DNA from: Squalus acanthias
Taxonomy: Eukaryota
Direction of reading: 5' to 3'
DNA length: 64,000 bases
Assembly: GCA_030390025.1 (NCBI GenBank)
Contig: CM059432.1
Coordinates: 16,184,001 to 16,248,000, forward strand
The notes under the pieces: model-generated
Told to the model about the DNA's origin: nothing
Database searches by the model: none
The model's input: the letters and a program-made list of their open reading frames with translations, nothing else
In this document: positions 1,416-56,743 of the stretch, piece after piece
Numbering within the stretch: position 1 is the first letter of the stretch
Layout of the letters: each line of letters begins with the position of its first letter
Made by a program: the position numbers and the translations under genes

Positions 1416-1534
1416 TAATTTTAATCAAAAGTAAATTTGAAAATATTAAAATCGTATTGTACCAGTTCATCCTGAGACAGATGCATATAGCATCTACTGC
1501 CGCACAAACCTTCTGCAGAAGCCAATATAACAGA

Positions 1535-1633
1535 ACTGAGTGTGGTTTAAACAGAGTGCTGTGAGTTGGGTGAGTCAGGGAGTCTGGTGAGGAGTGGAAA
1601 GAGGAGCTCCCTTGCTTCGCCTTCGCCTTTGTT
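1535..1633 (+). repeat. shared leader L, copy 1 (others at 12606-12698 and 14613-14705)
   Basis: ACTGAGTGTGGTTTAAACAGAGTGCTG...GGAGCTCCCTTGCTTCGCCTTTGTT is present three times, near-identical. Confidence 0.95.
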
Positions 1634-2704
1634 GGAGAGACACAGGCTGCGAGATTCTCAGCTCAGCTCAGCTCGGTGCTGTGTGAACGGGACTGAGTGC
1701 GGTTTGAAGAGTGCTGAGAAGAGGAGAGGAGAGGAGAGGTCTCTCTCTCTCTGTGCCTAGGAGGAGAAGAAGACAGAGCCACGAAGGGCAGAGTGGAGAC
1801 CCTTTCCACCTCCACCACGCCTGCTGCAGCTATTTCCACAACTACTGCTGAGGTGCCAGAAGGGAGAGGGGAGAGGGGAGAGGAGAGAGAGGAGAGGAGA
1901 CCAACAACAACAACAGAGGGAAGCCATTACATCACTGCCTCCCCAACTGGTCTCCATTACGAGAGAGGGAGAGAGGGGAGAACAAGACTACCATCTGCTT
2001 GGAAGGAGGGAGAGCGAGCCATCAAGAAAAACAACATCTAGAGGTGGGTGTTAAAAAGGGCACTCTCCAAAAGACTTTGTAGTTTAGGTGGGGGGAGGAA
2101 AGAAGAAGGAGAAGACCGGAACAGCAAGGGGAGTGTGTGTGGCTCTTGCTAACAACTAGGCCACACACACCATCAACAAGCACCCCTTGCCTATTGCTTG
2201 ACCTGGGACAGCTGGAGCTGCCCAGGCAAAGTCATCAATCTATTTCCCCAATCTATAACATCGTTAAGACCTGGTAGTGGACTGAGCCTGGGCATCTCCA
2301 GCTTTATTTTCCCAGGTGAAGACATCTTCTCCCCCCACCAGAAGATCAGAAAAAAACCAACAAGGACTATAATTAACATCGGAGAGTGCCCCCCCGTAAG
2401 CACCCACCCACTATCCTGAGTGGCGAACAGGCCCTTGCGGCCTCCCTTCTTCCCACCCGCTCTCTCTCTCTCTCTCTCTCTGCCTCTCTCTCTCTAACAA
2501 GGCACCTTTACCTATTAATTACCCAATTGAGCAGAGGGGAGAAGGCCCCTCTCCCAATTCCAATCATCAAAGGGAGAGGTGTGCCTTCATTTTTAAAACA
2601 ACCCCCTCTTCTCAGGGAAGAGACAAAAACAAACAACCTAGGCCATTTCAACCATCACCCGGCCTGTGACTTGGGGTGGGTGTAGCCCTTTATACCACCT
2701 TATT

Positions 2705-4747
2705 ATGGCGAGCACATCTTCGCCGGCAACGGGGCAAGCAAGGTCGTACGCGGGTGTGGCAGCCACGGCCACAGCCAGTCCCGCTGCTTCTGCTGCCCTG
2801 TCGCCTTTCAGGCTATTGACCAAAAAGCTGGGGGTGAAGAGCTACACTCACCCCAACATGACCATAGAGGCTTGCGTCAAAGCCATGGCTGGGGTAGTCG
2901 GCCCCTCAGCCATCGTAGCAGCCTCTAAAATGTACGGCAAGGCTGTGTTCTTCCTGGGGTCGGAGCGGGCGGTGTCCCTGGCCGTCACGAAGGGGCTCAC
3001 TGTGGGCGGGACCTTCCTGCCGGTGGATCCGCTTGAGGCCACCGCGCAGCGAATCGTCCTTTCAAACATCCCGCCCTTTGTTCCGGGTGAGCTCCTCCTC
3101 CCCCACCTACGTCAACTGGGGGAGGTGAGGTCGGGGATTAATCCGATCCCGCTCGGCTGCAGGGAGGCCAGCCTCCGGTACGTCTTCTCCTTCCGGCGCC
3201 AGCTGTTTATCCAGCTGGTGCGGGAGGAGGACAAAGAAGGCGCGTTGTCGTCCAACACGTGCGGTGCCACGCCTGCAAGGAGGTGGGGCACATAAGAAAG
3301 AACTGCCCCGCCTTCAAGGCCGCCAAAACATCTGAGGCAGCCGAGGCTGGCACCACCGCCGCTTCCCCCCCGTTTCTGTCTGCGCGTCCGCGACACCCGA
3401 TGCGCGGTCAACACCGAAGTCAACGCCGTCGCGGCCTCCGGCAGAGGGGAGGGGGAGCGTCCGATCGGAAGGAAGGCGCGGAGGAAAACTAAACTAAACA
3501 CCTTCAGGTGGGTCCCCTTGACATACAGGATGAGCTACCCGGGCTTACGCCCCCGTACCTTGCGCAGGTGGCGGCGGTGCTCGAGAGTGCGGGAGGTCTC
3601 GTGCCCGGGCCTGCGGCCGCAACTGCCAAGACAGCAAAATCAAGACCTGTGGTTGGGCCCGGGCCCGGGCACGAGAGACCCAAGCAAACCGTTCGACAGG
3701 AGGGAGCGGAGGTGGAGGCCTCGGTACACATGAGGTCTCCCAACCTCCGTGTCCCTTCACACTGAAAAGGAGGCGCAACACCCTGGAGGAGGAGGAGGAC
3801 CGCGAGGAACAGGGTCCCTCCTCGCAAGGGGAGTCGTCGCTCGCCGCGGGTGCTGCGCCCCCCCCCCGCAACCGACACCGACACCATCACTGACATCCGG
3901 CAGGAGTCGCCTGTCCCCCGGGAGGGTACGACAGATGAGTCTGTCCAGCCTGTGCCTCCCGGGGATGGGGAAGAGACCCTGCTCGTGGGGGGGGCCGCGG
4001 AACTACCCGCGGAGGAACTATATATTGAACCATTGTTTCTCGCCAGGTTGGGCGTCCTGGGGACCGGGGCGGGCGAGGCCAATGAGGCTGAGCCCGCCGT
4101 ATACGGTCAAGACTATTCCCAGGTGCTGCTCGACCTGGTTGAGGAATTCAGCCAGGGTCCCCGGTCCGCTGGGTCGGAGGATGGTGGCGGTGAAGGGGAA
4201 GGCCCCCTGACTCCGTCTCCGACGCTGGCGCCGGGGGTGTTGGGGGAACTGGCATTAATGTACTCCCCGGTTTCCCCTGTGCACCCCGGTGCCGGGGGCG
4301 GAGGGGGGCCCCGAGCCTGCCGCCGCTTCCTGGCCCGGCGCCTCTGGAGGAGCCCAGGGAGGACTCCTCTGCCGCTGATCCTGGGGGTGGGATCGGGGCA
4401 GAGGTAGGACCAGCTGATGGCGACCCCCCGAGGAGGAGGACGGGGACCCGGCGGAGGGCACTGAGGATGACATGGACTCCGTCGCCAGCGAGGCGGCGGA
4501 TACCCTCGTGCCCCCCTCCGGGCCCCCCCTCATCCCCGTTGTGGAACTCCGGGACTTTGTGGCCATGGGCCAGGGTCGCCAGGATATAATCCGGCTGGCC
4601 ATCGATAAATGGTCGATCTGGCGCTGCTCGTTTGCTCCGTCCGCGCCGCCGTCAAAACCATGGGCGCGACGGGGGCATGGGCCCGGCCGAGCGGCATCGG
4701 ATCCGGAAGTTCCTGGCTGGGCTGAGAAGGGAGTGGCGGTCGACTAG
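2705..4747 (+). pseudogene. Tx1 ORF1 (gag-like nucleic-acid-binding protein), frameshifted
   Basis: IVAASKMYGKAVFFL and IVLSNIPPFVP motifs, CHACKEVGHIRKNC knuckle in another frame at ~3262, low-complexity C-terminal half split over frames. Confidence 0.8.
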
Positions 4748-4803
4748 CGGCTGCGCTCCCTCCTCCCGTTAGGGTTAGGTAGAGGTTGCACTATGCTCTT
4801 GTC

Positions 4804-7800
4804 ATGAAGATAACCATAGCCAGCCTCAACATCAACGGCAGCAAAGAGGCACGCCGTAGATTTAATAACTTCACGGTCCTTCGGGAAGGGAGGCATGCAG
4901 TGTGCTTCCTGCAGGAAACTCACACCGTTCCGGGAGACGAGGCCATGTGGCTCCTGGAGTGGCGAGGAGGGGTCAACATGAGTCATTTCTCCAACATTTC
5001 CGGCGGGGTGGCTATCTTGCTGGCCCCGCATTTTCAGCCGCAGATCTTGGGGGTCAAGGAGCATGTGCCGGGCCGCTTGCTCCAGGTCACTGTTCGCCTG
5101 GGGGGCATGCCGCTCCATTTAGTGAACGTGTAGGCCCCCCAGGCCGGTGGCCAGCAAGTGCGCTTCTTCGAAGAAGTGTCCGCTCTTCTGGGCTCCATCG
5201 ACGTCGGCGAGTGTGTCATCCTCGGGGGGGATTTCAATTGTACCCTCGAGGCGAGGGACCGTTCGGGTCCTCCGCGAAGCCTGGCGGCGATGGTGAAGTT
5301 AAGGGACCTGGTCGGGTCCTTCGACTTGGTGGACGTCTGGCGAAATCTCCATCCCGACTCCAGCGCCTTCACTTGGGTGGGGTCTGGAGGAGGAAGGTCC
5401 AGAATCGACCGCCTTTATATTTCCCGGGCGTACGTCTCCTGCGTTCCGGCGGCTTCCATGCGGCCGGTACCGTGCACGGACCACCACCTGGTGTGGGCGG
5501 AGCTCGCTCCGTTGCACGCGCCGGGGGGGTCCGCGTACTGGCATTTTAACAACCTGCTGCTGGAGGACGAGTGGTTCCGGGATTCGTTTCGCCGGTTCTG
5601 GGCCGACTGGAGAAGGAAGCAGGGGGGGCTTCCCCTCCTTGAGGCGATGGTGGGACGTGGGCAAGGCTCACGTCCGTCTCTTCTGTCAAGAGTACACGAG
5701 GGGGTCGACCAAGAGGCGGGAGGCCCGGGTCGGGCGGTTGGAGAGGGAGGTGCTTGACCTGGAGTCCCGTCTCGGTCAGGTCGTCGAAGACCCGGCCCTG
5801 CGGAAGGTGTACGAAGAGAAGGGCGCGCTGAAGGACCTGCAGCTGGTCGGGTCCCGAGGCGCGTACGTGAGGTCGCGAATCCAGTTCCTGCGGGACCTGG
5901 ACCGCGGCTCCCCCTTCTTCTACTCGCTGGAAAAAAAAGACGGGGGGTCCGTGAGCAGCTCTTGGGGCTGCTGGCCGACGACGGATCTCTGGTCTCGGAT
6001 TCGGAGGGGATCAGCGCGGAGGCCCGGGCCTATTACGGGGCTCTGTTCTCTCCGGATCTGTCCAGTGAGGATGCGCGCAGAGCTTTGTGGAAGAACTTGT
6101 TGAAGGTCGGCCCGGAGGGCGCCGAAAAATTGGACGCTCCGCTAAGCTTGGCGGAGCTGACTGGCGCTCTCGGCCAGCTCTCGAGGGGAAAGTCCCCGGG
6201 GCTGGACGGGCTGACCGTAGAGTTCCACAGGGCGTTCTGGGACGTCTTGGGGGGCAACTACGCGCGGGTCCTGGGGGAAAGTCTGGCGACCGGGGAGATG
6301 CCCCTCTCTTGGCGCAGGGCGGTCATCGTCCTGCTGCCCAAGAAGGGCGATCGCCGCCTCTTAAAAAACTGGCGCCCGGTCTCCCTCCTCAGCACGGACT
6401 ATAACATTTTTGCCAGGGCCATGTCTGCGCGCCTTGGCTCCGTGCTGGCCTACATGATCCACCCCGACCAGTCCTACACGGTCCCGGGCCGGTCCATCCA
6501 TGACAACATCCATCTGGTCCGGGACCTGGTCCACCTTTCCCAGAGGGCTGGATCAGGAGAAGGCGTTCGACAGGGTGGATCATGAGTATCTTTTCGGAAC
6601 TCTGCGCGCATTCGGGTTCGGGACGCACTTTGTCGCCCGGATCCGACTTCTGTATGCCTGCCGCGGAGTGTCTGATTAAAGTTAACGGGTCTTTGACGGC
6701 GCCCCTTCGCTTCGGGAGAGGGGTACGTCAGGGATGCCCCATGTCCGGTCAGTTATACGCCGTTTGCGTGGAGCCTTTCCTGCGCCTCTTGCGGAAGAGT
6801 TTGATGGGACTGGCTCTGCAAGGGCCGGGCGTGGAGGTCGTCCTCTCGGCTTACGCCGATGACGTGCTCCTCATGGTCACGGATCCCGTCGACTTGCGGA
6901 GGATGCGAGAATGCCAGCAGATTTACTCGGACGCATCCTCCGCCAGGATCAACTGGGAGAAATGTTCTGGACTCCTGGTGGGCCAGTGGCGGGTGGACTC
7001 CCTGCCGGAAGAGTTCAGGCCCTTCGCCTGGAACACAACGCACCTCCTCTACTTGGGAGTCTACCTTGGCCCTGCTGAGGACACCTGGCCGGCGAACTGG
7101 CAAGAGCTGGAGGCCAAAGTCACCGCTCGCCTAGGACGTTGGACGGGGTTGCTCCGAGTGTTGTCCTACAGGGGTCGAGCGCTGGTCATAAACCAGCTGG
7201 TGGCCGCCATGTTGTGGTACCGGTTGGTCACTTTGATCCTTCCCTCTGCATTTGTCGCCAAGATACAGAAGAAGCTGATCGACTTCTTCTGGGACAAAAG
7301 GAAGCACTGGGTCTCTGCTGCGGTTCTGTGTCTCCCGCTTAGGGAGGGCGGTCAGGCGCTGTTGTGCCTTCGCACCCAGGCGGCGACTTTCCGCCTTCAG
7401 ACGCTGCAGAGATACCATTACGTCGAGAATCCTCCCAGATGGTGTGCGCTGGCGACATATTTCTTCCGTCAGATGCACGGCCTCAACTACGACACGCAGC
7501 TCCTGTTTGTGGAATTGGGCCGCACGCGAGCCTACCTGTGGGAGCTGCCTGTCTTCTACCAGGAAGTGCTATGGGTCTGGAACCAAGTCACCTCCAGGCA
7601 GAGTTCTCCCCCGTCAGGAGTGGCGGCTCTCCTTCGGGAGCCGCTGCTCAGTAATCCGCACCTCCACGTCCGACAGATCGGGTGGCTGGCGGAGGGCAGG
7701 GCTGTGCCTGGCAAGGTGACCAGAGTCGGGGACCTGCTCGATGGCGGAGGAGCGGGCTGGATGGCGTCGGAGGAGTTGGCGCGGCGCCTCTCCTGGGTCG

Positions 7801-8678
7801 ACGTCTGGCGCGCGGCCAAAGCCATCGAGTCGCTGAAAGTGGCCCTGGGCCCCGACTCCACTAGGTGTATCAAGGAGGCTCAAGCACATGGGGCGATCCC
7901 GTCCGAACTGACCCCCGTTCGGACGGAATTCCTCATTGGCGCGCGGCCCCGAAACCCCTCTCGGGAACAGGCGCCTCACAACTTGAGCCATCTCGGGGAA
8001 ATGCCCTCCGTGCCTTTTAGTTCTCCACGGAGGTGTTTCCTGTACTGGCTGCTCCTGCACACTCTCCACTTTGCCATCTTCGCCTGCCGTCCGGACACGC
8101 CTTGGCAGGCCACCTTGCCGTCCGGCGGAGGCGAAGGTCCCCAATGGAGGGCTCTCTACGCAGGAGTCCTCCCCTTTTCTACTGGGGACTAGGCCTGGAG
8201 GGTGTTGCACGGAGCAATCCCGTGCAATCAGCTTTTAAGTAGGTTCACGGACTCCCAGGCCGCCTGTCTTTTTTGCGGCCTCGAGGAGTCCGTGTTCCAC
8301 GTGTATGTACAATGTGAGAGGTTGCAGCCCCTCTTTCAATATTTGAAGGGGCTGCTCCTTGCTTTTTGGTTGCACTTCAGTCCCACGCTCCTGATCTACA
8401 GTCACCCAGTGCGGAGGGGAGAGGGCAGGTCGGAGGACCTCCTCGTAGGACTGCTCCTGGGCCTGGCCAAAGTGGCCATTAACAGGTCCAGGCAGCGGGC
8501 GGTCGAGGGGGTCGGTCGGCCCAATTGCCTGCCTCTCTTCCGCGGCTATGTTCGCGCCCGGGTGGCTCTGGAGATGGAGCACGCGATGTCCGCCGGCACA
8601 CTTGAAGCCTTCCGAGACCGGTGGGCGCCGCAGGGACTGGAGTGCATCGTCTCCCTGGGCAATGTTATTTTAATTTAA
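4804..8678 (+). pseudogene. Tx1 ORF2 (AP endonuclease, reverse transcriptase, zinc motif) with stops and frameshifts
   Basis: SLNING, FLQETH, GGDFN, SRIDRLY, TDHH; KSPGLDG, WRPVSLL, GVRQGCPMS, YADD, YLGV; CLFCGLEESVFHVYVQC; stops at 5131 and 8190, shifts near 5635, 5940 and 6550. Confidence 0.92.
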
Positions 8679-8743
8679 TGGGATAAGTTTCATTTGAAGT
8701 TTTGTTAATTTGCAGTCGTTTTATGTTGACTCAAAAAAAAGAG

Positions 8744-8877
8744 TACAAGGCCTACAATTCAGAGCAGCTGAGGCAGTTAATTAGGGGAACTAGATTAAAC
8801 TGGTTCTCCTGTAGCAGGGCAGGGCCGAGCAAGCTCCTTTGTTTCAGGGCCGATAAAAACAGGCTTTGAAGTGCGAT
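8744..8877 (+). promoter_or_regulatory. module P copy 1 (TATA altered to GATAAAAA; separated from its Inr by a CR1 insertion)
   Basis: Near-identical to 14473-14607; continues at 12601 after the inserted CR1. Confidence 0.75.
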
Positions 8878-8976
8878 CATAGAATCATAGAATCATAGAA
8901 GATAGGAGCAGGAGTAGGCCATTCGGCCCCTCTAGCCTGCTCGCCATTCAATGCGATCATGGCTGATCATCCAAAT

Positions 8977-10626
8977 TCAGTACCCTGTCCCTGCTTTCTC
9001 CCCATATCCCTTGATCCCTATAGCCTTAAGAAATATATCCAACTCCTTCTTGAATCTATTTAATGAATTGGCCTCTACTGCCTTCTGTGGCAGAGAATTC
9101 CACAGGTTCACCACTCTCTGGGTGAAGAAATTCCTCCTCATTTCTGTCCTAAATGGTTTACCCCTTATCCTTAGACTGTGACCCCTGGTTCTGGACTCCC
9201 CGACCATCGGGAACACCCTTCCTGCATCTAGTTTGTCCTGTCCTGTCAGAATTTTATAAGTTTCAATGAGATCGCCTCTCATTCTTCTAAACTCCAGCGA
9301 GTATAAGCCCAATCGACCCAATCTCTCTTCATACGTCATTCCTGCCATCCCAGGTATCAGCCTTGTGAATCTTCGCTGAACTCCTTCCATGGCAAGAACA
9401 TCCTTCCTCAGATAAGGCGACCAAAACTGCACACAGTACTCAAGGTGTGGTCTCACCAAGGCCCTGTACAACTGCAGCAAGACATCCTTGTTCCTGTACT
9501 CAAACCCTCTCGCTATGAAGGCCAACATACCATTTGCCTTCTTAACCACCTGCTGCACCTGCATGCTTACCTTCAGTGACTGGTGCACAAGGACACCCAG
9601 CTCTCGTTGCACTTCCCCTTCTCCCAATCTATTGCCATTCAGATAATAATCTGCCTTCCTGTTTTTGACACCAAAGTGGATAACCTCGCATTTATCCATG
9701 TTATATTGCATCTGCCATGCTTCTGCCCAATCACCCAACCTGTCCAAATCATCCTGGAGTTTCTCGGCATCCTCCTCGCAGCACACACGCCCACCCAGCT
9801 TTGTGTTGTCTGCAAACTTGGAGATATTACATCTAGTTCCCTTGTCTAGGTCATTAATATATATTGTGAATAGCTGGGGTCCAAGGACCGATCCCTGCGG
9901 TACCCCACTAGTCACTGCCTGCCACTCGGAAAAAGACTCGTTTATTCGAACTCTTTGCTTTCTGTCTGCCAACCAGTTCTCTATCCAAGTCAATACCTTG
10001 CCCCCAATCCCATGTGCCTTAACTTTACACGCTAATCTCTTATGCGGGACCTTATCAAAAGCCTTTTGGAAGTCCAAATACACCACATCCACTGGTTCTC
10101 CCTTATCTATTTTACCAGTTACATCCTCAAAAAATTCCAGTAGATTAGTCAGGCATGATTTACCTTTTGTAAATCCATGTTGACTTTGTCCGATCCTGTC
10201 ACTGTTTTCCAAGTGCTCAGCTATTACATCTTTTATAATGGACTCTAGCATTTTCCCCACTACCGATGTCAGGCTTACCGGTCTGTAATTCCCCGTTTTC
10301 TCTCTACCACCCTTTTTGAATAGTGGGGTAACATTAGCTACCCTCCAATCCATGGGTACAGTTCCAGATTCCATCGAATGTTGGAAGATGATCAGCAATG
10401 CATCTACTATTTCTAGGGCCACTTCCTTAAGTACCCTAGGATGTAGATTATCAGGCCCTGGGGATTTATCGGCCTTCAATCCCTTCAATTTCCCTAACAC
10501 CATTTCCCTACAAATACTGATTTCTTTCAGTTCCTCCCTTTCATCAGACCCTATGTTCCCCAACATCTCTGGGAGGTTATTTGTGTCCTCCTTTGTGAAG
10601 ACAGAACCAAAATATGTATTTAATTG
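8977..10626 (-). CDS. CR1 ORF2 RT portion (open frame; catalytic FADD reads FADN)
   Basis: KSPGPD, NYRPVSLTS, YLDFQKAFDKVPH, GVPQGSVLGP, SKFADNTK. Confidence 0.85.
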   Translation of the reverse strand, partial: QLNTYFGSVFTKEDTNNLPEMLGNIGSDEREELKEISICREMVLGKLKGLKADKSPGPDNLHPRVLKEVALEIVDALLIIFQHSMESGTVPMDWRVANVTPLFKKGGREKTGNYRPVSLTSVVGKMLESIIKDVIAEHLENSDRIGQSQHGFTKGKSCLTNLLEFFEDVTGKIDKGEPVDVVYLDFQKAFDKVPHKRLACKVKAHGIGGKVLTWIENWLADRKQRVRINESFSEWQAVTSGVPQGSVLGPQLFTIYINDLDKGTRCNISKFADNTKLGGRVCCEEDAEKLQDDLDRLGDWAEAWQMQYNMDKCEVIHFGVKNRKADYYLNGNRLGEGEVQRELGVLVHQSLKVSMQVQQVVKKANGMLAFIARGFEYRNKDVLLQLYRALVRPHLEYCVQFWSPYLRKDVLAMEGVQRRFTRLIPGMAGMTYEERLGRLGLYSLEFRRMRGDLIETYKILTGQDKLDAGRVFPMVGESRTRGHSLRIRGKPFRTEMRRNFFTQRVVNLWNSLPQKAVEANSLNRFKKELDIFLKAIGIKGYGEKAGTGY

Positions 10627-10627
10627 T

Positions 10628-11761
10628 GGATATGTGGAACACTCTTTGTTCCAGTCCTACTCGGGTCCCCTCCCTCACCTCTTTTTCCGGTACATTGACG
10701 ACTGTATCGGTGCCGTTTCCTGCTCTCGCCCTGAACTAGACAATTTCATTCACTTTGCCTCCAATTTCCACCCTTCCCTCACCTTCACATGGTCCATCTC
10801 CGACTCTTCCCTCCCCTTCCTCGACTTCTCCGTCTCCATCTCTGGGGATAGGTTATTGACCAACATTTACTACAAGCCCACTGACTCCCACAGCTACCTG
10901 GACTACACTTCCTCCCACCCCGCCTCCTGTAAGGACTCTATTCCCTTCTCCCAGTTTCTCCGTCTCCGCCGCATCTGCTCCGACGATGCCACCTTCCATA
11001 CCAGTGCTTCCGACATGTCTTCCTTTTTCCTCAACCGAGGATTCCCCTCTACCGTGGTCAACACGGCCCTCGACCGTGTCCGTTCCATCTCCCGCACTTC
11101 TGCCCTCACCCCGGCCCCTCCCTCCCGGAACCACGATAGAGTTCCCCTTGTCCTCACCTTTCACCCCACCAGCCTCCACATTCAACGGATCATCCTCCGC
11201 CATTTCCGCCACCTCCAACGTGATCCCACCACCAAACGTATCTTCCCCTCACCTCCCCTTTCAGCATTCCGTAGGGACCGCTCCCTCCGAGACACCCTAG
11301 TCCACTCCTCTATCACCCCCAGCACCCCTTCCCCTTCACCCGGCACCTTCCCGTGCAAGCGCAGGAGATGCAACACCTGCCCTTATACATCCCCCCTTCC
11401 CACTCTCCAGGGCCCCAAACACCCCTTCCAGGTGAAACAGCGATTTACTTGTACTTCTTGCAATCTAGTATACTGTATTCGCTGCTCACGATGTGGTCTC
11501 CTCTACATTGGGGAGACCAAACGCAGACTGGGTGACCGCTTTGCGGAACACCTCCGTTCAGTCCGGAAGGGTGACCCCGAGCTTCCGGTCGCTTGTCATT
11601 TTAATTCACCCCTCCACGCTCACTCAGACCTCACCGTCCTCGGCCTCTTGCATTGTTCCACGGAAGCGCAGCGTAAGCTCCAGGAACAGCACCTCATCTT
11701 CCGTTTAGGCACTTTACAGCCTTCCGGACTCAATATCGAGTTCAACAATTTCAGATCATAA
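10628..11761 (+). CDS. Penelope RT C-terminal half, Cys linker and GIY-YIG endonuclease (open frame)
   Basis: RYIDD, LPFLD, YYKPTD, CKRRRCNTC, LVYCIRCSRCGLLYIGET, RFAEH, LQPSGLN. Confidence 0.9.
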   Translation, partial: GYVEHSLFQSYSGPLPHLFFRYIDDCIGAVSCSRPELDNFIHFASNFHPSLTFTWSISDSSLPFLDFSVSISGDRLLTNIYYKPTDSHSYLDYTSSHPASCKDSIPFSQFLRLRRICSDDATFHTSASDMSSFFLNRGFPSTVVNTALDRVRSISRTSALTPAPPSRNHDRVPLVLTFHPTSLHIQRIILRHFRHLQRDPTTKRIFPSPPLSAFRRDRSLRDTLVHSSITPSTPSPSPGTFPCKRRRCNTCPYTSPLPTLQGPKHPFQVKQRFTCTSCNLVYCIRCSRCGLLYIGETKRRLGDRFAEHLRSVRKGDPELPVACHFNSPLHAHSDLTVLGLLHCSTEAQRKLQEQHLIFRLGTLQPSGLNIEFNNFRS

Positions 11762-12030
11762 CCCCGGCCCCTACCACATATGTACACATTTTATCCACTC
11801 TTTTGGTCCGTGCCTTTTTCCTTTTTTTCTCTCTCTCCCCCCACGGCAGCTGTCTCTGATTCTGCCAGCATTTCACACCTTACCTTTTGTTTCTCAACCT
11901 GTCCCATTACCATCTCGTCTTGCCTTGAGCATCTCTCAATGTCTCTACTCACTAAAGACCATCCCATTTGTTCTTTTATTCCTCCCCCCAGCCTCCCCCT
12001 TGCATTTTTATCTGTTTATTTCTTGCTCTC

Positions 12031-12072
12031 TCAGTTCCGACGAAGGGTTTCAACCTGAAACGTTAACTCTGT
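12031..12072 (+). ncRNA. minimal hammerhead-ribozyme-like motif of the Penelope 3' region
   Basis: AGTT-CCGACGA-AGG...CCT-GAAA-CGTT-AACT: core variant of CUGANGA plus GAAA, short stem II, palindromic AACGTT stem III. Confidence 0.6.
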
Positions 12073-12605
12073 TTCTCTCTCCACGGATGTTGCCTCGCCT
12101 GCTGAGTTTTTCCAGCGTTTTCTGTTGTTATTTCGGATTTCCAGCATCCGCAGTATTTTGCTATCGTATATGTATTTAATTGGTCTGCCATTTCTTTGTT
12201 CCCCATTATAAGTTCCCCTGATTCTGACTGCAAGGGACCTATGCTTGATTTCACTAATCTTTTTCTCTTCACATATCTATAAAAGCTTTTACAGTCATTT
12301 TTTATGTTCCCTGCAAGCTTACTCTCGTATTCTATTTTCCCCTTCTTAATTAATCCATTTGTCCTCCTTTGTTGAATCTTAAACTGCTCCCAATCCTCAG
12401 GGTTACTGCTTTTTCTGGCCAATTTATATGCCCTCTCCTTGGATCTTATGCTATCCCTAATTTCCCTTGTTAGCCACGGTTGAGTCACCCTTTTTGTTTT
12501 ATTCTTATGCCAAACTGGGATGAACAAATTCTGTAGCTCGTCCATGCGGTCTTTAATGTTTGCCATTGCCTATTTCGGGTTTTAGCACAAGCGCAGCGAT
12601 TTTGC

Positions 12606-12698
12606 ACTGAGTGCAGTTTAAACAGAGTGCTGTGAGTTGGGTGATTCAGGGAGTTAGTTGAGGAGTGGAAGGAGGAGCTCCCTTGCTTCGCCTTTGTT
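12606..12698 (+). repeat. shared leader L, copy 2
   Basis: Near-identical to 1535-1633 and 14613-14705. Confidence 0.95.
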
Positions 12699-14472
12699 GG
12701 AGAGACACAGGCTGCGAGATTCTCAGCTCAGCTCAGCTCGGTGCTGTGTGAACGGGTGAGCAAGCATACCCAAGCTGCTTGCGGGGAATGCTAGTGGGAA
12801 GGCTGTGAGATTCTCGGCTCAGCTTGGTGCTGTGTGAATGGGCTGTTCCACACCCCGGCTGCTCGTGGGGAATGCCAGTGCGGAGGGCCCAGTGCAGAAG
12901 GTCCAGGGTGGAAGACCCAGAGGAGAGTGGCCTAGGCGGGAGGCCCAGCATGGAGAACCCCAGGTGGGGGGCCCAGGGTGAAGCGGCTGGTCGGCAGAGG
13001 TGGAGTCGGGAGATGCTGTGGGTGAGCATGCTGCACTGGTTCTAAAAGTTGAAGAATGGTCTCGGGCCGGGATGAGTTCCAGCGGCCCCGTATGTGCTCC
13101 GTCTGGTGGCAGCTGTGAGGCTTTTCTCGGTGACGGGATCGGGTTTGTGCGCTGCCATTTTGGTGGAGGAAAGACAAACTGTTTCCATCTGTAGCATGGC
13201 GCGTGAGCAGGTCACAAGATGGGAAATGTGAACGGTTAAAAGTGGGGGAAAAAAGGAAAAATAAAAGGAAGATAAAAGACAAAACAAAGTAATATCGGTA
13301 AGGAATAATGAGTATTTTTTGATGACTGGGTCCTGTGAGCAATAACAGCAAGTAGAAGAAAATCTGAGTTTTCGGTCTTTTTTACGGGATTGAGAAAGTG
13401 GATGGTTTCTTTTCCGTGGAAAAGCTGAAGACTGTGGACAAGGACTATGACATCACATGGTTCGACAGACATCAAGTGAAAACGAGGAGTTATTAAATTG
13501 CCAATAGGACTGGCGTAGAACTGGTATTTACTTGTTTTGTTGAAAAAAGTTTCAGGTTTTCTGGTTGAAAGCAGTCTACTTGAGCTTTAATTGATTTTTG
13601 ATAAGGTGATGGGATTTTGCACATTGTGTTGTTAATTAGTGTTTATGTAGAATTTGCTTTGAGATTATTGTCTAGCAAATGGTATGAATTTATATTGGTA
13701 AGAAATTTATGGCTGGCTTTCGGGGGGGGGAAATTTCCTTAATGAACGAACTATTGAACGGACGGACGCTTGAGTGAACGAACGAACGAACGATCGAACG
13801 AACGCACGCATGCACATTGGAACTTACGCTCGATCGAACGAACAATCGTTTGGCTAGCGATTGAACGAACGAATGAGTGAACGCACACACTTAGACAAAT
13901 GGTACGCACGCACGCATACATATTGGAACTTACACTCGATCGAACGAACGGTCGTTGGCCTCTGAACGAACGAACGAGCGAACGAACGCACGCATGCACG
14001 CACTTAGACAAACGGTAGCACACGCACGCACATTGGAACTTACGCTCGATCGAACGAATGAACGAACGCTCGAGTGAACGAACGAACGATTGAACGAACG
14101 ATCGAATGAACGATTGAATGAACAAACGATGCCAGTAGGACTGGCGTAAAATGGGTAGTAGTATATTTGTAGCATTTAATTGAATTATGATGGTGCTATG
14201 TGATTTGTACACTGAGGTGTTAAACTGTTTTCTTTTATGTGGAGTTTACCTTGAGATTTATTGTTTTAAATCTACAAAGTTTGTGTGAGATTATTTAAGG
14301 GTATTTGTATTGTAAACTTTGTTGATTTATTTGTAAAATTTTATTAATGTATTTATATTGTTAATCGTAAAGCTGTTTTTAAGGCTTTATTGTTTATTGT
14401 GATCAATGAATGTAATGGTCTACTATGTAATTGATGAGTTGTGTAAGTACTATTGTACTTGAATAAAAGATT
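12699..14472 (+). mobile_element. unclassified non-coding element X (putative non-autonomous partner of the Tx1)
   Basis: First 58 bp identical to the Tx1 start (1634-1691), no credible ORF, T-rich tail with AATAAA at 14462 directly before P2. Confidence 0.6.
13740..14128 (+). repeat. (GAAC)n/(GCAC)n compound repeat with a ~110-120 bp higher-order unit
   Basis: CATTGGAACTTACGCTCGATCGAACGAA recurs three times (~13814, ~13921, ~14031) among GAAC runs. Confidence 0.85.
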
Positions 14473-14615
14473 TACAAGGCCTACAATTCAGAGCAGCTGA
14501 AGGCAGTTAATTAGGGGAACTAGATTAAACTGGTTCTCCTGTAGCAGGGCAGGGCCAAGCAAGCTCCTTTGTTTCAGGGCCTATAAAAACAGGCTTTGAA
14601 GTGCGATTTTGCACT
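14473..14615 (+). promoter_or_regulatory. module P copy 2: candidate Pol II core promoter (TATA and Inr)
   Basis: TATAAAAA at 14582, 31 nt upstream of the A (14613) of TGCACT (BBCABW Inr consensus); that A is the first base of leader L. Confidence 0.7.
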
Positions 14616-14987
14616 GAGTGTGGTTTAAACAGAGTGCTGCGAGTTGGGTGAGTCAGGGAGTCAGGTGAGGAATGGAAGGAGGAGCTCCCTTGCTTCGCCT
14701 TTGTTTTTCCTAACTTTTCACCCTGTAGGAATTGGTTCTTACTTTACACCAAGGAAAGAGTCCGAGAGCGGGAGCAGTCAAACAACAACAACTGCGAAAC
14801 CGCTAAAGTGACGTCACAACCAGGGAAGGAGCTGATTGGTAAGTAGGACCTGGTGAGTATTTCTACAGTCCAGTCGTTAAAGTAAAAGTAAGGTCTCTAG
14901 TTTAGAGTAAGTAGTGTTTAAAGGGAAGTAAGGTCCCTAGTGTATTTAATATTCTTTAATTTAAAGGGAGTAAATTAAGGGTAGGAC

Positions 14988-16001
14988 ATGGCAGGGCAGC
15001 TCGGCTGCGTGGAGTGCTCCTCCTGTGCTATGTGGGAAGTCAGGGACACATTAGGTGTCCAGGGCGAACACATGTGCAGGAAGTGTCTCCAGCTACAGCT
15101 ACTCGAAATCCGCGTTTCAGAACTGGAGCTGTGGCTGGAGTCACTGTGGAGCATCCGCGAAGCTGAGATCTTCGTGGATAGCACGTTTAACGAGGTGGTC
15201 ACACCGCAGGTAAAGAGTGCACAGGCAGACAGGAAATGGGTGACCGCCAGACAGAGTAAAAGAACTAGGAAGGTAGTGCAGGAGTCCCCTGGGTCCATTT
15301 CCCTCTCCGACAGATTTTCCGTTTTGGATACTGCTGGGGGAGATGGTTTCTCAGGGGAATGCAGCAAGAGCCAAGTCCGTGGCACTACAAGTGGCTCAGC
15401 TGCACAGGAGGGGAGGAAAAAGATTGGGAGAGCAATAGTGATAGGGGATTCTATTGTAAGGGGAACAGATAGACGTTTCTGTGGCCGCAGACGTGACTCC
15501 AGGATGGTATGTTGCCTCCCTGGTGCCAGGGTCAAGGATGTCACTGAACGGCTGCAGGGCATTCTGAAGGGGGAGGGCGAACAGTCAGAGGTCGTGGTTC
15601 ACATTGGTACCAACGACATGGGTAGAAAGAGGGATGAGGTCCTGCAACAAGAATTTAGGGAGCTAGGTAGCAGATTAAAAAGCAGGACCTCAAAGGTTGT
15701 AATCTCTGGATTACTCCCGGTGCCACGTGCTAGTGAGTATAGGAATAGGAGGATAGAGCAGATGAATGCGTGGCTAAAGAGTTGGTGCAGGAGGGAGGGC
15801 TTTAGTTTCCTGGATCACTGGGCCTGCTTCTGGGGGAGGTGGGACCTGTACAAGTCGGACGGGTTGCACCTGAACCGGAACGGGACCAACATCCTTGCGG
15901 GGAGGTTTGCTAGTACTGTTGGGGGGGGGTTTAAACTAACTTGGCAGGGGGCTGGAATACGGAGTGGAGCTATAGTAGGGGTGATACACAGCCAAATATA
16001 G
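14988..16001 (+). CDS. CR1 ORF1: zinc finger/leucine zipper and SGNH (GDSL) esterase domain, 337 aa
   Basis: CVECSSC...HMCRKC, heptad leucines, IGDSIVRG, HIGTND, DGLHLN. Confidence 0.9.
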   Translation: MAGQLGCVECSSCAMWEVRDTLGVQGEHMCRKCLQLQLLEIRVSELELWLESLWSIREAEIFVDSTFNEVVTPQVKSAQADRKWVTARQSKRTRKVVQESPGSISLSDRFSVLDTAGGDGFSGECSKSQVRGTTSGSAAQEGRKKIGRAIVIGDSIVRGTDRRFCGRRRDSRMVCCLPGARVKDVTERLQGILKGEGEQSEVVVHIGTNDMGRKRDEVLQQEFRELGSRLKSRTSKVVISGLLPVPRASEYRNRRIEQMNAWLKSWCRREGFSFLDHWACFWGRWDLYKSDGLHLNRNGTNILAGRFASTVGGGFKLTWQGAGIRSGAIVGVIHSQI

Positions 16002-16042
16002 AGGAAAAAACAAGTCAGCCTGGAAGGAAGAGCAAATATGTA

Positions 16043-18866
16043 ATGGCACAAGGGAGTATGGCAAGGCTGGATGGCATTTATTTTAATGCAAGGAGTCTTG
16101 CGAGTAAGGCAGATGAATTGAAGGTGTTGATGAACACATGGGAGTATGATATTGTTGCTATCATAGAGACATGGTTGAGGGAGGGGCAGGACTGGCAGCT
16201 CAATATTCCGGGGTATAGAATCTTCAGGCGAGACAGAGGGGGGTGTAAAAGAGGAGGGGGTGTCGCAATATTAATCAAGGAGTCAATTACTGCTGTAAGG
16301 AGGAATGATATCTTAGCAGGTTCCTCTAATGAGGCCATATGGGTAGAACTTAAAAACAAAAAGGGGGCAAGCACTTTGCTGGGAGTGTACTATAGGCCCC
16401 CAAACAGTCAGGGGGAGATAGAGTGACAGATATGTCGGCAAATCTCAGAGAAGTGTAGAAATAATAGGGTAATAATAGTAGGGGATTTCAACTTCCCCAA
16501 TATTAATTGGGATAGTCAGAGTGTGAAAGGCTTGGAGGGTGCGGAATTCTTAAAGTGCATCCAGGAGAGCTTTTTGAGCCAGCATGTAGAAAGTCCTACA
16601 AGAGAGGGGCGGTACTGGACCTAATTCTAGGGAATGTAGGGCAAGTGGTAGAAGTGTCAGTAAGAGAGCATTTTGGTGACACTGACCATAATTCGGTGAG
16701 ATTTAAGGTAGTCATGGAAAAGGAAAAAGGTGGACCAGAAATAAAGGTTCTAAATTGGGGGAAGGTCGATTTTAATATGATAAGGCAGGATCTGGCCAAA
16801 GTGGACTGGGATCAGCTACTTGCAGGAAAGTCCAAATCAGAGCAATGGGAGTCTTTCAGAAAGGAAATAGAGAGAGTACAATGCCAACATGTTCCCGTAA
16901 AGGTCAAGGGTGGGACCAACAAACCCAGGGAACCCTGGATGTCAAGGGATATACAAGAATGGATTAGGGGAAAAAAGGGAGGCTTTTGGCAGATACAAAG
17001 GACTAAAAACAGTGGAAGCCCTAGAGGAGTATAGAAAGTGCAGGGGGGTACTTAAAAAAGAAATTAGAGAGCAAAGAGGGGGCATGAAAAAACACTAGCG
17101 GGTAAAATAAAGGAAAATCCCAAGGTGTTATATAAGTATATTAAGGGCAAGAGGATAACCAGGGAAAGAGTAGGGTCCATTAGGGACCAAAGTTGCAATC
17201 TGTGTGTAGAGCCAGAAGATGTAGGTGAGGTGTTAAATGAATATTTTGCATCTGTGTTCACTCTGGAGAAGGACGATGTAGGCATAGAAATCAGGCAGGG
17301 GGATTGTGATATACTTGAACAAATTAGTATTGAGAGGGAGGAGGTACTAGTGGTTTTAGCAGGCTTAAAAGTGGATAAATCCCCAGGCCCTGACGAGATG
17401 TATCCCAGGCTGCCGTGTGAGGCAAGGGAGGAGATTGCAGGGGTTCTGACACAAATTTTCAGAACCACTCTGGCCACAGGGGAGGTGCCAGAGGACTGGA
17501 GAACAGCTAACGTAGTACCATTATTCAAGAAGGGTAGTAGGGATAAACCAGGGAATTACAGGCCAGTGAGCCTAACATCAGTGGTAGGGAAATTATTGGA
17601 AAAAATTCTGAGGGACAGAATTAGTCTCCACTTGGAGAGGCAAGGATTAATCAAGGATAGTCAGCATGGCTTTGTCAGGGGGAGATCATGTCTAACCAAT
17701 TTGATTGAATTTTTCGAGGGGGTGACTAGGTGTGTGGATGAGGGTAGTGTAGTTGATGTAGTCTACATGGACTTCAGTAAGGCTTTTGACAAAGTCCCAA
17801 ATGGGAGACTGGTCAAGAAGGTAAGAGCCCATGAGATCCAGGGCAAATTGGCTCATTGGATCCAAAATTGGCTTAGTGGCAGGAGGCAGAGGGTGGTGGT
17901 CGAAGGTTGTTTTTGTGACTGGAAGCCTGTGTCCAGTGGTGTACCGCAGGGACCGGTGCTGGGTCCTTTGTTGTTTGTAGTGTACATTAATGTTTTAGAT
18001 ATGAATGTAGGAGGTATGATCAGTAAGTTCGCAGATGACACGAAAATTGGTGGAGTGGTAAATAGCAAGGAGGGAAGCCTCAGGCTACAGGACGATATAG
18101 ACGGGTTGGTTAGATGGGCAGAACAGTGGCAAATGGAATTTAACCCTGAAAAATGTGAAGTGATGTATTTTGGGAGGACTAACAAGGCAAGGAAATATAC
18201 AATGAATGGTAGGACCCTAGGAAGGACAGAGGATCAAAGGGACCTTGGTGTGCATGTACATAGATCCCTGAAGGCAGCAGGACAGGTAGATAAGGTGGTT
18301 AAAAAGGCATATGGGATACTTGCCTTCATTAGCCGAGGCATAGAATATAAGAGCAGGGAGGTTATGATGGAGCTGTACAAAACGCTAGTTAGGCCACAGC
18401 TGGAATACTGTGTGCAGTACTGGTCACCACACTATAGGAAGGATGTGATTGCATTGGAGAGGGTGCAGAGGAGATTCACCAGGATGTTACCTGGGCTGGA
18501 GCGCTTCAGATATGAAGAGAGACGGGACAGGCTGGGGTTGTTTTCCTTAGAGCAGAGAAGGCTGAGGGGAGACCTGATTGAGGTGTACAAAATTATGAGG
18601 GGCATAGATAGGGTAGATAGAAAGGAACTTTTCCCCTTAGTAGAGGGTTCAATAACCAGGGGGCATAGTTTCAAGGTAAGGGGCAGGAGGTTTAGAGGGA
18701 TTTGAGGAAAGACTTTTTCACCCAGAGGGTGGTTGGAATCTGGAACTCACTGCCTGAAAGGGTGGTAGAGGCAGGAACCCTCACAACATTCAAGAAGCAT
18801 TTAGATGAGCACTTGAAACGCCATAGCATACAAGGCTACGGACCAAGTGCTGGAAAATGGGATTAG
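16043..18866 (+). pseudogene. CR1 ORF2 (APE and RT), disrupted
   Basis: YFNARSL, ETWL, GGGVA, YYRPP, TDHN, FADD; stop at 16424 and frameshifts near 16600, 16970, 17070 and 18700. Confidence 0.92.
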
Positions 18867-19113
18867 AATAGACAGGGCTTGATGGCCAGCGCGGACACGA
18901 TGGGCCGAAGGGCCTCTTTCTGTGCTGTATAACTCTATGACTCTATGAGAACTGCAGCATGGTTTGCAAAACTATTTCAGGATCTGAGTCCACCCATAAA
19001 CTCCCTGCTCAGATAGTCTGCATTTTAAATAGTTTCCCCAGTTTGTTGCTTGCGTTGGTGTTTGATGCAGACTCACTTGTCTCTGCTCATGCTTGTAGAA
19101 CTCCTCCTCATCC

Positions 19114-19532
19114 TACATAAGAACATAAGAAATAGGAGCAGGAGTAGGCCATTCGGCCCCTCGAGCCTGCTCCGCCATTCAATAATATCACGGCTGATCT
19201 TCTACCTCAACTCCACTTTCCTGCACTATCCCCATATCCCTTGATTCCCTTAATATCCAAAAATCTATCGATTTCTGTCTTGAATATACTCACCGACTGA
19301 GCCTCCACAGCCCTCTGGGGTAGAGAATTCCAAAGATTCACCACCCTCTGAGTGAAGAAATCTCTCCTCATCTCAGTCCTAAATGGCCAACCCCTTATTC
19401 TGAGGCTGTGACCCCTGGTTCTAGACTCCCCAGCCAAGGGAAACATCCTCCCTTCATCTACCCTGTCAAGCCCTGTAAGAATTTTGTATGTTTCAATGAG
19501 CTCACCTCTCATTCTTCTAAACTCTAGAGAAT
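19114..19532 (-). mobile_element. CR1 3' fragment
   Basis: LEFRRMRGELIE...KGYG on the minus strand, ATAAGAAC tail. Confidence 0.9.
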
Positions 19533-54562: not shown

Positions 54563-56743
54563 GAGTCATAGTCATAGAGTTATACAGCACAGAAAGAGGC
54601 CCTTCGGCCCATCGTGTCCGCGCCAGCCATCAAGCCCTATCTATTCTAATCCCATTTTCCAGCATTTGGTCGGTAGCCTTGTATGCTATGGCGTTTCAAG
54701 TGCTCATCTAAATGCTTCTTGAATGTTGTGAGGGTTCCTGCCTCTACCACCCTTTCAGGCAGTGAGTTCCAGATTCCAACCACCCTCTGGGTGAAAAAGT
54801 TTTTCCTCAAATCCCCTCTAAACCTCCTGCCCCTTACCTTGAAACTATGCCCCCTGGTTATTGACCCCTCTACTAAGGGGAAAAGTTCCTTTCTATCTAC
54901 CCTATCTATGCCCCTCATAATTTTGTACACCTCAATCAGGTCCCCCCTCAGCCTTCTCTGCTCTAAGGAAAACAACCCCAGCCTGTCCAGTCTCTCTTCA
55001 TAGCTGAAGCGCTCCAGCCCAGGTAACATCCTGGTGAATCTCCTCTGCACCCTCTCCAATGCAATCACATCCTTCCTATAGTGTGGCGACCAGAACTGCA
55101 CACAGTATTCCAGCTGTGGCCTAACTAGCGTTTTGTACAGCTCCATCATAACCTCCCTGCTCTTATATTCTATGCCTCGGCTAATGAAGGCAAGTATCCC
55201 ATATGCCTTTTTAACCACCTTATCTACCTGTCCTGCTGCCTTCAGGGATCCATGTACATGCACACCAAGGTTCCTCTGATCCTCTGTCCTTCCTAGGGTC
55301 CTACCATTCATTGTGTATTCCCTTGCCTTGTTAGTCCTCCCAAAATGCATCACCTCACACTTTTCAGGGTTAAATTCCATTTGCCACTGTTCTGCCCATC
55401 TGACCAACCCGTCTATATCGTTCTGTAGCCTGAGGCTTCCCTCCTCGCTATTTACCACTCCACCAATTTTCGTGTCATCTGCGAACTTACTGATCATGGC
55501 CCAAAAATTCGTGAGGAAGCCTTCGTGCGAGGGTAAGGCCTCCCCGCGATCTCTCACTGCGCGTTGGCTTTTTCAGTTCCAGCTCGCACGAACTTGATGT
55601 TCTGGACAGCTGCTGTGCTGGGCTTGCGTATCCCACAGGCGTAGTTAATTCGTGCGAGCTGTGGGATCACGTGACTCAGTTAGAGCCAATGGCAGCACAC
55701 CATCTTCCATTCATAACTTTCACATAAGTGCTGTGAAAGCTATGAATACTATAGCCCCCAAAAGAACCGCTAAACCTCAATTAAATTTTTTTTTAAAACC
55801 ATCACATTAATAAAATAAGTATAGTTAAATAAATTAACCATTTTAAATAAAAAATTAAATTTTTGAAAAAATTTAAAATCTTTTAAAAAGTTATAAAAAT
55901 AAACTTACCTGTCTTTAAAGTCTCTAAAAAAGATATACCTGTTAAAAAAAATTCAAAATAATACTTAATTCACTACTTACCTTGTTAAAAGTGGGTCTTA
56001 CTCCTCCTTTTTTTATGTGTAGAATCTTCCGTACTTACCTGCGCGTTGAAACCACTAAGTGCACTGCATGCGCGCAGCCTGTAGCGCGCACGCGGTTCAC
56101 CTAGGACCCGCCGCCTTTTCCATTCACCAAGTGCCGGTTTTCAGCGCATGCACAGTGCATGCAGAAAACCGGCAATTGGAGACAGAATACGCGAGAGTAC
56201 GCAGTGCGTACTCTCGCGTAGCGGCACTAATTTTTGAGCCCATATCTCCTACATTCATATCTAAATCATTAATGTACACTACAAACAGCAAAGGACCCAG
56301 CACCGATCCCTGCGGTACACCACTGGACACAGGCTTCCAGTCACAAAAACAACCTTTGACCATCACCCTCTGCCTCCTGCCACTAAGCCAATTTTGGATC
56401 CAATGTGCCAAATTGCCCTGGATCCCATGGGCTCTTACCTTCTTGACCAGTCTCCCATGCAGGACTTTGTCAAAAGCCTTACTGAAGTCCATGTAGCCTA
56501 CATCAACTGCACTACCCTCATCCACACACCTAGTCACCCCCTCGAAAAATTCAATCAAATTGGTTAGACATGATCTCCCCCTGACAAAGCCATGCTGACT
56601 ATCCTTGATTAATCCTTGCCTCTCCAAGTGGAGACTAATTCTGTCACTCAGAATTTTTTCCAATAATTTCCCTACCACTGATGTTAGGCTCACTGGCCTG
56701 TAATTCCCTGGTTTATCCCTACTACCCTTCTTGAATAAAGGTA
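54563..56743 (-). mobile_element. 5'-truncated CR1 of the same subfamily as the full-length copy, interrupted by a MITE
   Basis: Near-identical to the reverse complement of 17515-18947; RT frames 54646-55497 and 56244-56743. Confidence 0.95.
55498..56240. mobile_element. MITE-like DNA transposon inserted in CR1
   Basis: TIR GGCCCAAAAATTCGTG / CACTAATTTTTGAGCC; TSD CAT confirmed against the uninterrupted CR1 at 18001-18030. Confidence 0.92.

Follow-up and report, generated by a model that had tools for sequence, protein, structure and literature searches.

A chain of LINEs in Squalus acanthias points to homing of a Tx1-clade element into the putative promoter unit of a CR1-group element

Mouse L1 elements carry tandem promoter monomers, and in the telomeric arrays of Drosophila a 3' promoter of HeT-A serves the next copy. 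For the CR1 group of long interspersed nuclear elements (LINEs), the part of PMC13343379 that bears on our case describes 5' repeating subunits of 100-500 bp and, as features of the group, an esterase open reading frame 1 (ORF1), an endonuclease, a reverse transcriptase (RT) and 3' octamers. Further precedents are brought together in the sections of Kojima (2015; PMC4494074) devoted to the Tx1-Mar LINEs and SINEU of crocodilians. There, Tx1-clade elements are already known to target transposons, to share heads with short partners and to stack in tandem; transcription from the target is suggested, with co-transcription strengthening the targeting; and two earlier cases are cited, namely the Xenopus Tx1L in Tx1D, a site-specific LINE nested in a mobile element (Christensen et al. 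2000), and R2/R1, which are transcribed together with the target and joined at the 5' end with the help of homology (Eickbush 2000; Fujimoto 2004). Here we describe a 17-kb block of chained retroelements in a 64,000-nt stretch of Squalus acanthias DNA (GCA_030390025.1, contig CM059432.1, positions 16,184,001 to 16,248,000, forward strand; hereafter the window). The block has the order L-Tx1-P-L-X-P-L-CR1, in which a leader (L) heads a Tx1-clade LINE, a non-coding element (X) and a CR1-group LINE, and a promoter-like module (P) stands before the second and the third leader.

The sequence-only reading had offered two models for this block. In the first, CR1 has a 5' region of (P+L)n monomers, and Tx1 and its partner insert at the L/P junction and use the CR1 promoter; in the second, Tx1 and X carry P at their own 3' ends for the benefit of the next element, possibly moving as one RNA ended by the CR1 tail. 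Our results support the view that both are partly right, in that a promoter unit of the CR1 type is the homing target of the Tx1 family, and read-through RNA is probably a further way in which chains move. The explanation that we favour, and regard as likely, is that Tx1 and X home into the CR1 promoter unit, that repeated homing builds the chains, and that the chain of the window is a copy of a read-through RNA.

A repeat search and a check of the sequence found L, P, the three elements and the flanking AGAACTG all at the places first reported (Table 1). The three L copies (repeat family D5) are 82-100% identical to the reference copy, and the two P copies are 98% identical over a 107-nt ungapped stretch (D6), with 131 of 135 aligned positions identical over the whole module. 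The claim that the first P abuts the second L once a later CR1 insertion is removed is borne out by the sequence and by the GCGAT duplication around that insertion. An empty site rejoining at AGAACTG had also been predicted, and a 377-nt contig from run X13, which has a different organism label, provides it: letters 1-166 of this contig lie on 1367-1531 and letters 167-346 on 18948-19128 (about 95% identity), ...ATATAAC is joined directly to AGAACTGCAGC, and AGAACTG is present once. The window block is one insertion relative to this empty site of another organism. The left target site duplication (TSD) ends in ACTG, and L begins with these same four bases, which gives the 5' joint a 4-nt microhomology.

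The arrangement extends over the genome: copies of P+L, Tx1, CR1 and Y (a 160-bp piece consisting of L(1-52) and a segment named Y3) are dispersed over most large contigs. Genome searches for each part gave more than 1000 first-look candidates each, and the samples reported below are the best 20-40 that were scored; later locus samples consisted of 36-50 nt snippets, and the TSD around a whole chain was examined at the window locus. For P+L, 40/40 scored places match at least 219 of 232 nt (best 40 of 1198 first-look candidates). Furthermore, 16-58% of the sampled words of 14180-15400 were present in sequencing runs under six organism labels, indicating that the family is not confined to one assembly.

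Downstream of P, all 30 P+L loci had a full L followed by CR1 (18), Tx1 (7) or X (5), while upstream stood a long Tx1 3' end (11), X (8, window included), Y (6) or Y with a short Tx1 fragment (5). The scored Y matches (best 40 of 1124 first-look candidates) all begin at query positions 1-19. Among 20 fresh 3' ends of Y, P follows in 16, and the first 12-13 nt of P and then a truncated Tx1 in 4; an end in unrelated DNA was seen neither in these 20 nor in about 15 cases at earlier loci. Since Y 3' ends run into P or its duplication and never into unrelated DNA, L(1-52), Y3, P and L(1-98) are parts of a single unit of about 390 bp, and the possibility that Y is a short interspersed nuclear element was rejected, as neither set held a free-standing copy. 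The repeating part is L1-52 + Y3 + P, usually present in about 1.3 units and seldom in more, and most copies have one P. The P-L52-Y3 junction gave 5 exact matches, one of which has a further Y3 upstream. The L-to-P junction that would mark a (P+L)n array was found at none of 90 loci, and its exact pattern gave 0 matches vs 67 for an equal-length control junction, at a sensitivity of about 6-8%; if such arrays exist, Y3-to-P junctions outnumber them at least about 20-fold. The unit resembles mouse L1 monomers and CR1-group subunits as a repeated 5' unit with its own, here predicted, start site, of which new copies lose the upstream members. It differs from them in its usual number of about 1.3, in being a landing site for another LINE clade, and in that a foreign LINE body sits between the promoter copies.

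The Tx1 RT piece (6504-8192) had YTX2_XENLA, the Xenopus 'Transposon TX1 149 kDa protein', as the best of 88 matches (46% identity, 91% coverage, E 6.6e-137), a clade assignment made by similarity search. The frame of the window copy is broken many times, as both LINEs of the window are decayed; Pfam recognised only RVT_1 and zf-RVT in this decayed Tx1, and most full-length relatives carry PF03372 (AP-type endonuclease). The terminus ...AAAGAGT has no poly(A). The 38 sampled Tx1 3' ends comprise 21 that continue into P, 12 that terminate at ...CTCAAAAGAGT beside unrelated DNA and 5 that are joined to a variant leader. Hardly any off-target copy is long (11 long and 5 short on target, 1 long and 9 short off target, p 0.005). 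Among the dispersed truncated copies, eight of the nine testable ones had clear 12-28 bp duplications, five of which begin with TACA.

P starts with (T)ACAAGGCCTACAATTC, which holds two TACA sites, and the junctions vary between the first and the second TACA and between GAGT and GAGTT. Nine loci form a hot spot with the order Y3, TACAAGGCCTAC(AA), 5'-truncated Tx1, GAGT and ACAAGGCCTACAATTC... (P), the inserts being bracketed by 12-15 bp duplications of the first bases of P. As their nine truncation points all differ, they are independent Tx1 insertions at one nucleotide position. The target preference of Tx1 is for TACA, with a hot spot at the Y3/P boundary. Such inserts occupy 9/35 Y3/P junctions vs at most 2/37 junctions of a Tx1 or X tail with P (p 0.02), which suggests that recognition depends in part on the Y3 side and that new members would be added at the 5' end of a chain. 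Of the first model, site-specific insertion of Tx1, and possibly of its partner, beside P, with use of the putative promoter unit that heads CR1, is upheld; the (P+L)n array is not, and the insertion point is the TACA at the Y3/P boundary, not the L/P junction.

These features place the system close to two described ones. Xenopus Tx1L, the closest protein relative, likewise sits at a specific site within another mobile element, with which it makes up a composite; its target is a repeat of a DNA transposon, whereas here about one third of the sampled copies are off target, with a TACA preference only. As far as the relevant sections of PMC4494074 go, Tx1-Mar and SINEU are likewise Tx1-clade LINEs and short partners with common 5' heads and a target inside another transposon, with a duplication sandwiched between tandem inserts; that target is a Mariner DNA transposon (or LTR/Harbinger, LTR meaning long terminal repeat) and not the promoter unit of an autonomous LINE, and those sections mention neither promoter-carrying chains nor a leader shared with a second LINE clade. 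In a full-text literature search, no account was found of Tx1 elements with a LINE promoter unit as their target, nor of a leader common to two LINE clades or of mixed promoter-bearing chains. What is new here is a Tx1 target specificity for the putative promoter unit of another autonomous LINE, along with an apparent promoter-sharing logic.

P was read as a promoter and L as a leader on the basis of the TATA position and the clustering of retrocopy 5' ends. TATAAAAA, the TATA box in P, begins 31 nt before the A of ACTGAGTG, where L starts, and about 40 independent CR1-, Tx1- and Y-headed copies start within about 15 nt of the start point predicted from it. Eighteen of 30 CR1 5' ends carry L without P. 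Their starts all adjoin unrelated DNA (three flanks being common to one another), and 17 of them lie in the interval from the last 12 nt of P to L +11, with L066 alone farther on, at about +29. Similarly, 17 of 20 fresh L-Tx1 heads abut unrelated DNA, 7 of them beginning exactly at ACTGA. These data, drawn from sequence comparison, make P look like a promoter and L like a transcribed leader. Two other readings of P were dropped: no copy ends with an A tail at the would-be poly(A) site (TATAAA, CA, then GU-rich), and an LTR-like R-U5...U3-R arrangement does not suit non-LTR elements with dispersed copies that lack P. Three of the P-less CR1 copies (L062, L069 and L082) have identical upstream sequence (...GGAGACTGAGCGCAG before AGACTGAGTG), which represents either duplicated loci or another recurrent upstream context.

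Chains occur at other loci as well. By coordinates, the Tx1-P-L-X-P-L-CR1 order recurs on C27 and C6, where it is Y-headed, with a Y3-P junction about 7.3-7.7 kb upstream of the Tx1 3' end; Y-P-L-X-P-L-CR1 was found on C18 and C17, and Tx1-Tx1-CR1 on C11. In all, Tx1 was seen to lead to CR1, X and Tx1, and Y to all three. Nine Tx1 copies of about 7.2 kb (again by coordinates) are all followed by P, and eight of them head a chain beside unrelated DNA, the C11 copy standing after P. None of the eight X-upstream cases had X followed by Tx1, and none of 20 sampled CR1 tails was followed by P. The P copies of one chain are 96.3-100% identical, against a background of 91.3%, and the chain partner ranked first of 47 in four of six chains (chance about 3e-6). 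Within chains, 15/834 sites of P and 23/558 of L differ (p 0.011), the background being 8.7% for both, and chains at different loci are 88-95% alike. We take the near-identity of P within chains to reflect resolution of the 5' end via the shared L, which may copy P at insertion. The recurrent Tx1-X-CR1 order, with X always before CR1, favours the copying of established chains as read-through RNA, and Y-P-L-CR1 copies must arise by read-through RNA via the 3' end of the last member. As for the second half of the second model, a single read-through RNA ended by the CR1 tail, it is compatible with the data though not proven by them: the single 7-bp duplication with its empty site, the chain heads starting at L and the recurring order all fit it.

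What stands before a full-length Tx1 or X copy was in every case either unrelated DNA or a complete P. A short duplication directly before L was found neither with two exact patterns (0 matches vs 67 for the control) nor at 20 L-Tx1 heads. Since full-length inserts share the L of the target and never stand behind a short duplication, L homology is the probable means by which their 5' end is resolved. Here the system resembles R2/R1, as target-derived sequence at the RNA 5' end could guide precise 5' junctions; it departs from them in that the homology-guided joining is one that we infer and that the target is a LINE leader, not ribosomal DNA.

In the mechanism that we propose, a CR1-group family carries a modular 5' end composed of L(1-52), Y3 (106 bp), P (about 139 bp, with TATA), L(1-98) and the CR1 body. 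Transcription would start at each L, the last start giving rise to the promoterless 'flank, L, CR1' copies and the upstream start to RNAs that carry P internally. Tx1 and X would nick in front of TACA, with a strong hot spot where Y3 meets P; truncated inserts leave the 12-15 bp duplication there, and full-length inserts, which start with the same L as the target, always end as tail, complete P, L and next element, the L-homology resolution perhaps copying P. Repeated homing would then yield L-Tx1-P-L-X-P-L-CR1, in which all members but the first have a promoter in front, and CR1, which would never home, would always be the last member. The window chain would most likely be a read-through RNA begun at the L of Tx1 and integrated in one step through the CR1 tail. 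The anatomy of the unit, the clustering of 5' ends, the hot spot with its duplications and the empty site are observed facts; promoter activity, the homology-guided resolution of the 5' end and arrival in one step are deduced from them.

Several observations weigh against this explanation. Beyond an A-rich stretch and GAKT, the X 3' end cannot be aligned to that of Tx1, and X was followed by CR1 in 8/8 cases, which means that X may be mostly a CR1 5' extension and not independently homing. The promoter and its start site are deduced from retrocopy 5' ends only. The best 20-40 of more than 1000 candidates favour copies resembling those of the window, and the samples contain duplicate rows (the C3 117-118 Mb cluster, L007/L009, L043/L049, L115/L116, L123/L124 and L135/L136). 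In the C11 and C27 chains the partner P ranks only 4-10 of 47, and gene conversion or assembly from contemporaneous copies could also explain the likeness of P within chains. Y-P-L heads Tx1 and X copies too, an occurrence that does not decide which family first owned the module. Finally, a 13.7-kb full-length complementary DNA is demanding for the CR1 enzyme, and assembly in place is an alternative to be reckoned with.

That alternative, which we hold to be possible but considerably less probable than the read-through explanation, has a Y-headed CR1 (or Y-P-L-X-P-L-CR1) inserting first and making the AGAACTG duplication, and Tx1 homing in later, its full-length 5' end annealing to the resident L(1-52) and deleting Y3, so that no 14-kb RNA is needed. 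Homing is frequent enough for this, given the truncated Tx1 at 9/35 Y3/P junctions; Y-headed copies are abundant (1124 first-look candidates); full-length Tx1 is tied to a downstream P, as its on-target and off-target lengths show; and the empty site shows only that another organism lacks the block as a whole. However, two or three hits at one locus are required, the Tx1-X-CR1 order recurs elsewhere whereas X then Tx1 does not (0/8), and the same chain exists in Y-headed form (by coordinates), which means that Y is not always deleted. A bolder version of our own explanation is also doubtful: a self-extending promoter parasitism of LINE on LINE, in which full-length homing copies P, leaving newcomer and resident with one each, and whole trains are retrotransposed as single RNAs by the CR1 machinery. 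If it were true, the promoter 'monomers' would become giant monomers, each holding a whole element, and a single leader, promoter lineage and vehicle would serve two LINE clades.

The remaining alternatives fare worse. It is very improbable that P or P+L is the own 3' end of Tx1 and X, a HeT-A-like 3' promoter in their RNA, as the second model had it in full. P does stand directly behind a Tx1-family tail or Y3 in 30/30 loci, and RNAs of X and Tx1 read into P (L093), yet P is never followed by unrelated DNA, running into a complete L and an element in 30/30 cases. Because 12/38 Tx1 3' ends terminate at GAGT, lacking P and having duplications of their own, P is not part of the Tx1 3' end, and this half of the second model is not supported; as the first 12-15 nt of P stand on either side of truncated Tx1, P is target and not cargo. 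The likeness to HeT-A lies in the head-to-tail array, where a member's putative promoter stands directly behind the 3' end of the previous member; unlike in HeT-A, P is target DNA and not RNA of the upstream element, and the arrays are interstitial and of mixed clades. Slightly less probable still is an origin without homing, from a single accidental ancestral composite copied as read-through RNA with random 5' truncation. Chains that begin at L beside unrelated DNA and the recurring element order agree with it, but the nine Tx1 inserts of differing truncation, all set within duplications at a single nucleotide position, the junction variants and the many combinations of Tx1 and Y with their followers do not. 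We give hardly any credence to a DNA-level origin or artefact (unequal recombination, gene conversion, segmental duplication of L/P repeats, or misassembly). Although there are clear duplicate loci (the C3 cluster, L007/L009) and near-identical P copies within chains, such an origin is opposed by the precise retro-type junctions with duplications, by the dispersal over most large contigs, and by contigs from runs of other organisms that cover parts of the block and the right flank.

A LINE with a promoter upstream of its own start loses this promoter at every jump, which is an old problem. If our explanation is true, the promoter survives inside longer read-through RNAs and is re-copied at homing, and a second LINE clade lives off this solution. 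Automatic repeat libraries will mis-annotate such chains as chimeric consensus sequences.

The third element of the chain is a CR1-group LINE, with an esterase in ORF1, endonuclease and RT in ORF2, and octamers, CR1 and Zenon not being separated in this assignment; Pfam gave Lipase_GDSL_2 (4.1e-16), Exo_endo_phos (2.8e-6) and RVT_1 (2.2e-32). X has no ORF longer than 78 aa on the plus strand, and its minus-strand ORFs had no Pfam match. It shares with Tx1 only the first approximately 160 nt (L + 64 nt) and has the same junction with P. One dispersed X copy, the only one seen (L093), ends in ...GATT-TACAAGGCCTACA followed by an A run, its end being the second TACA inside P; the simplest reading is priming at that TACA of an RNA that had read through into P. 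X also carries a repeat of its own first approximately 100 nt (12800-12886), and partial L-like repeats (ACTGAGTGCGGTTTGAAGAGTGCTG...) recur inside the 5' untranslated region (UTR) of Tx1 (1692-1725), which indicates that the 5' regions are themselves internally duplicated. In addition, a region of about 400 bp in X consists of degenerate 8-bp (GAACGAAC) and approximately 110-bp repeats. The positions of all parts are listed in Table 1.

Table 1 Features of the chained block and of the later insertion, by position in the window.
Feature	Position	Strand	Remarks
Left TSD copy, AGAACTG	1532..1538	+	final ACTG may equally belong to L as its first 4 nt
L1, leader of Tx1	1535..1627	+	begins at predicted transcription start; no P upstream
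Tx1-clade LINE	1628..8744	+	5' UTR approximately 1628-2641; decayed ORFs 2642-8678
Tx1 3' end, ...CTCAAAAAAAAGAGT	8744	+	without poly(A)
P1, predicted promoter module	8745..8877	+	TATA box mutated to GATAAAAA at 8852
Last 5 nt of P1, TTTGC	12601-12605	+	beyond the later insertion
Later insertion, 5'-truncated CR1-like LINE	8878..12595	-	outside the system; (ATTCTATG)n tail at the 8878 end
GCGAT, 5-bp duplication of the later insertion	8873-8877 and 12596-12600		flanks the insertion, which cuts P1 5 nt before its end
L2, leader of X	12606..12698	+	
X, non-coding element	12699..14472	+	ends ...AATAAAAGATT; first 64 nt as in Tx1 5' UTR
GAACGAAC-type repeat region within X	13739-14135	+	
TACA, preferred nick site of the Tx1 family	14473..14476	+	upstream edge of P
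P2, predicted promoter module	14474..14612	+	TATAAAAA at 14582-14589, 31 nt before L3
L3, leader of CR1	14613..14705	+	
CR1-group LINE	14706..18947	+	ORF1 with GDSL esterase domain 14985-16001; ORF2 in at least 3 pieces (endonuclease, RT)
CR1 tail, two ACTCTATG octamers	18932-18947	+	
Right TSD copy, AGAACTG	18948..18954	+	

Some junctions of Tx1 and the 5' unit deviate from the common pattern. At five loci (L044, L047, L052, L053 and L058; about 1840-1945, Tx1-oriented) the Tx1 3' end joins another leader, CACCCCGAGTGCGGCCCC..., directly and without P, and an X-like body, from about position 102, comes after this variant leader; all five have an identical junction, and L044 and L052 also share an internal Tx1 deletion. 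These joints look like a second composite lineage. In L056 (512-3272), P is preceded by two tandem Tx1 fragments, both truncated at 4769, and in L157 the sequence is GAGT-TACA-AAAGAGT-TACAATTC, as though the second TACA had received a Tx1 stub of 7 nt. L072, where Y is joined to X at position 773, was rejected as an insert, being a recombinant junction with AAAG microhomology and no flanking duplication. At L002/L071 and L016/L045, the match to P-L-CR1 stops at CR1 position 296-297 and other sequence continues, which represents a recurrent insertion point or a short CR1-headed variant.

With regard to the window itself, 341-nt contigs of runs X10 and X11 break exactly at 18948; they are candidates only and were not counted as empty sites. 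Contigs under three organism labels (X10, X11 and X13) skip 81 nt in 14646-14728 (L +34 to CR1 +22), which is a common deletion variant of the 5' UTR. The later insertion at 8878-12595 has an opposite-strand ORF with a sub-threshold GIY-YIG match (E 5.6e-4). A second copy of the same CR1 family lies on the minus strand at 54570-55497 and 56241-56743 (97% identity, positions approximately 2811-4237), split by another insertion.

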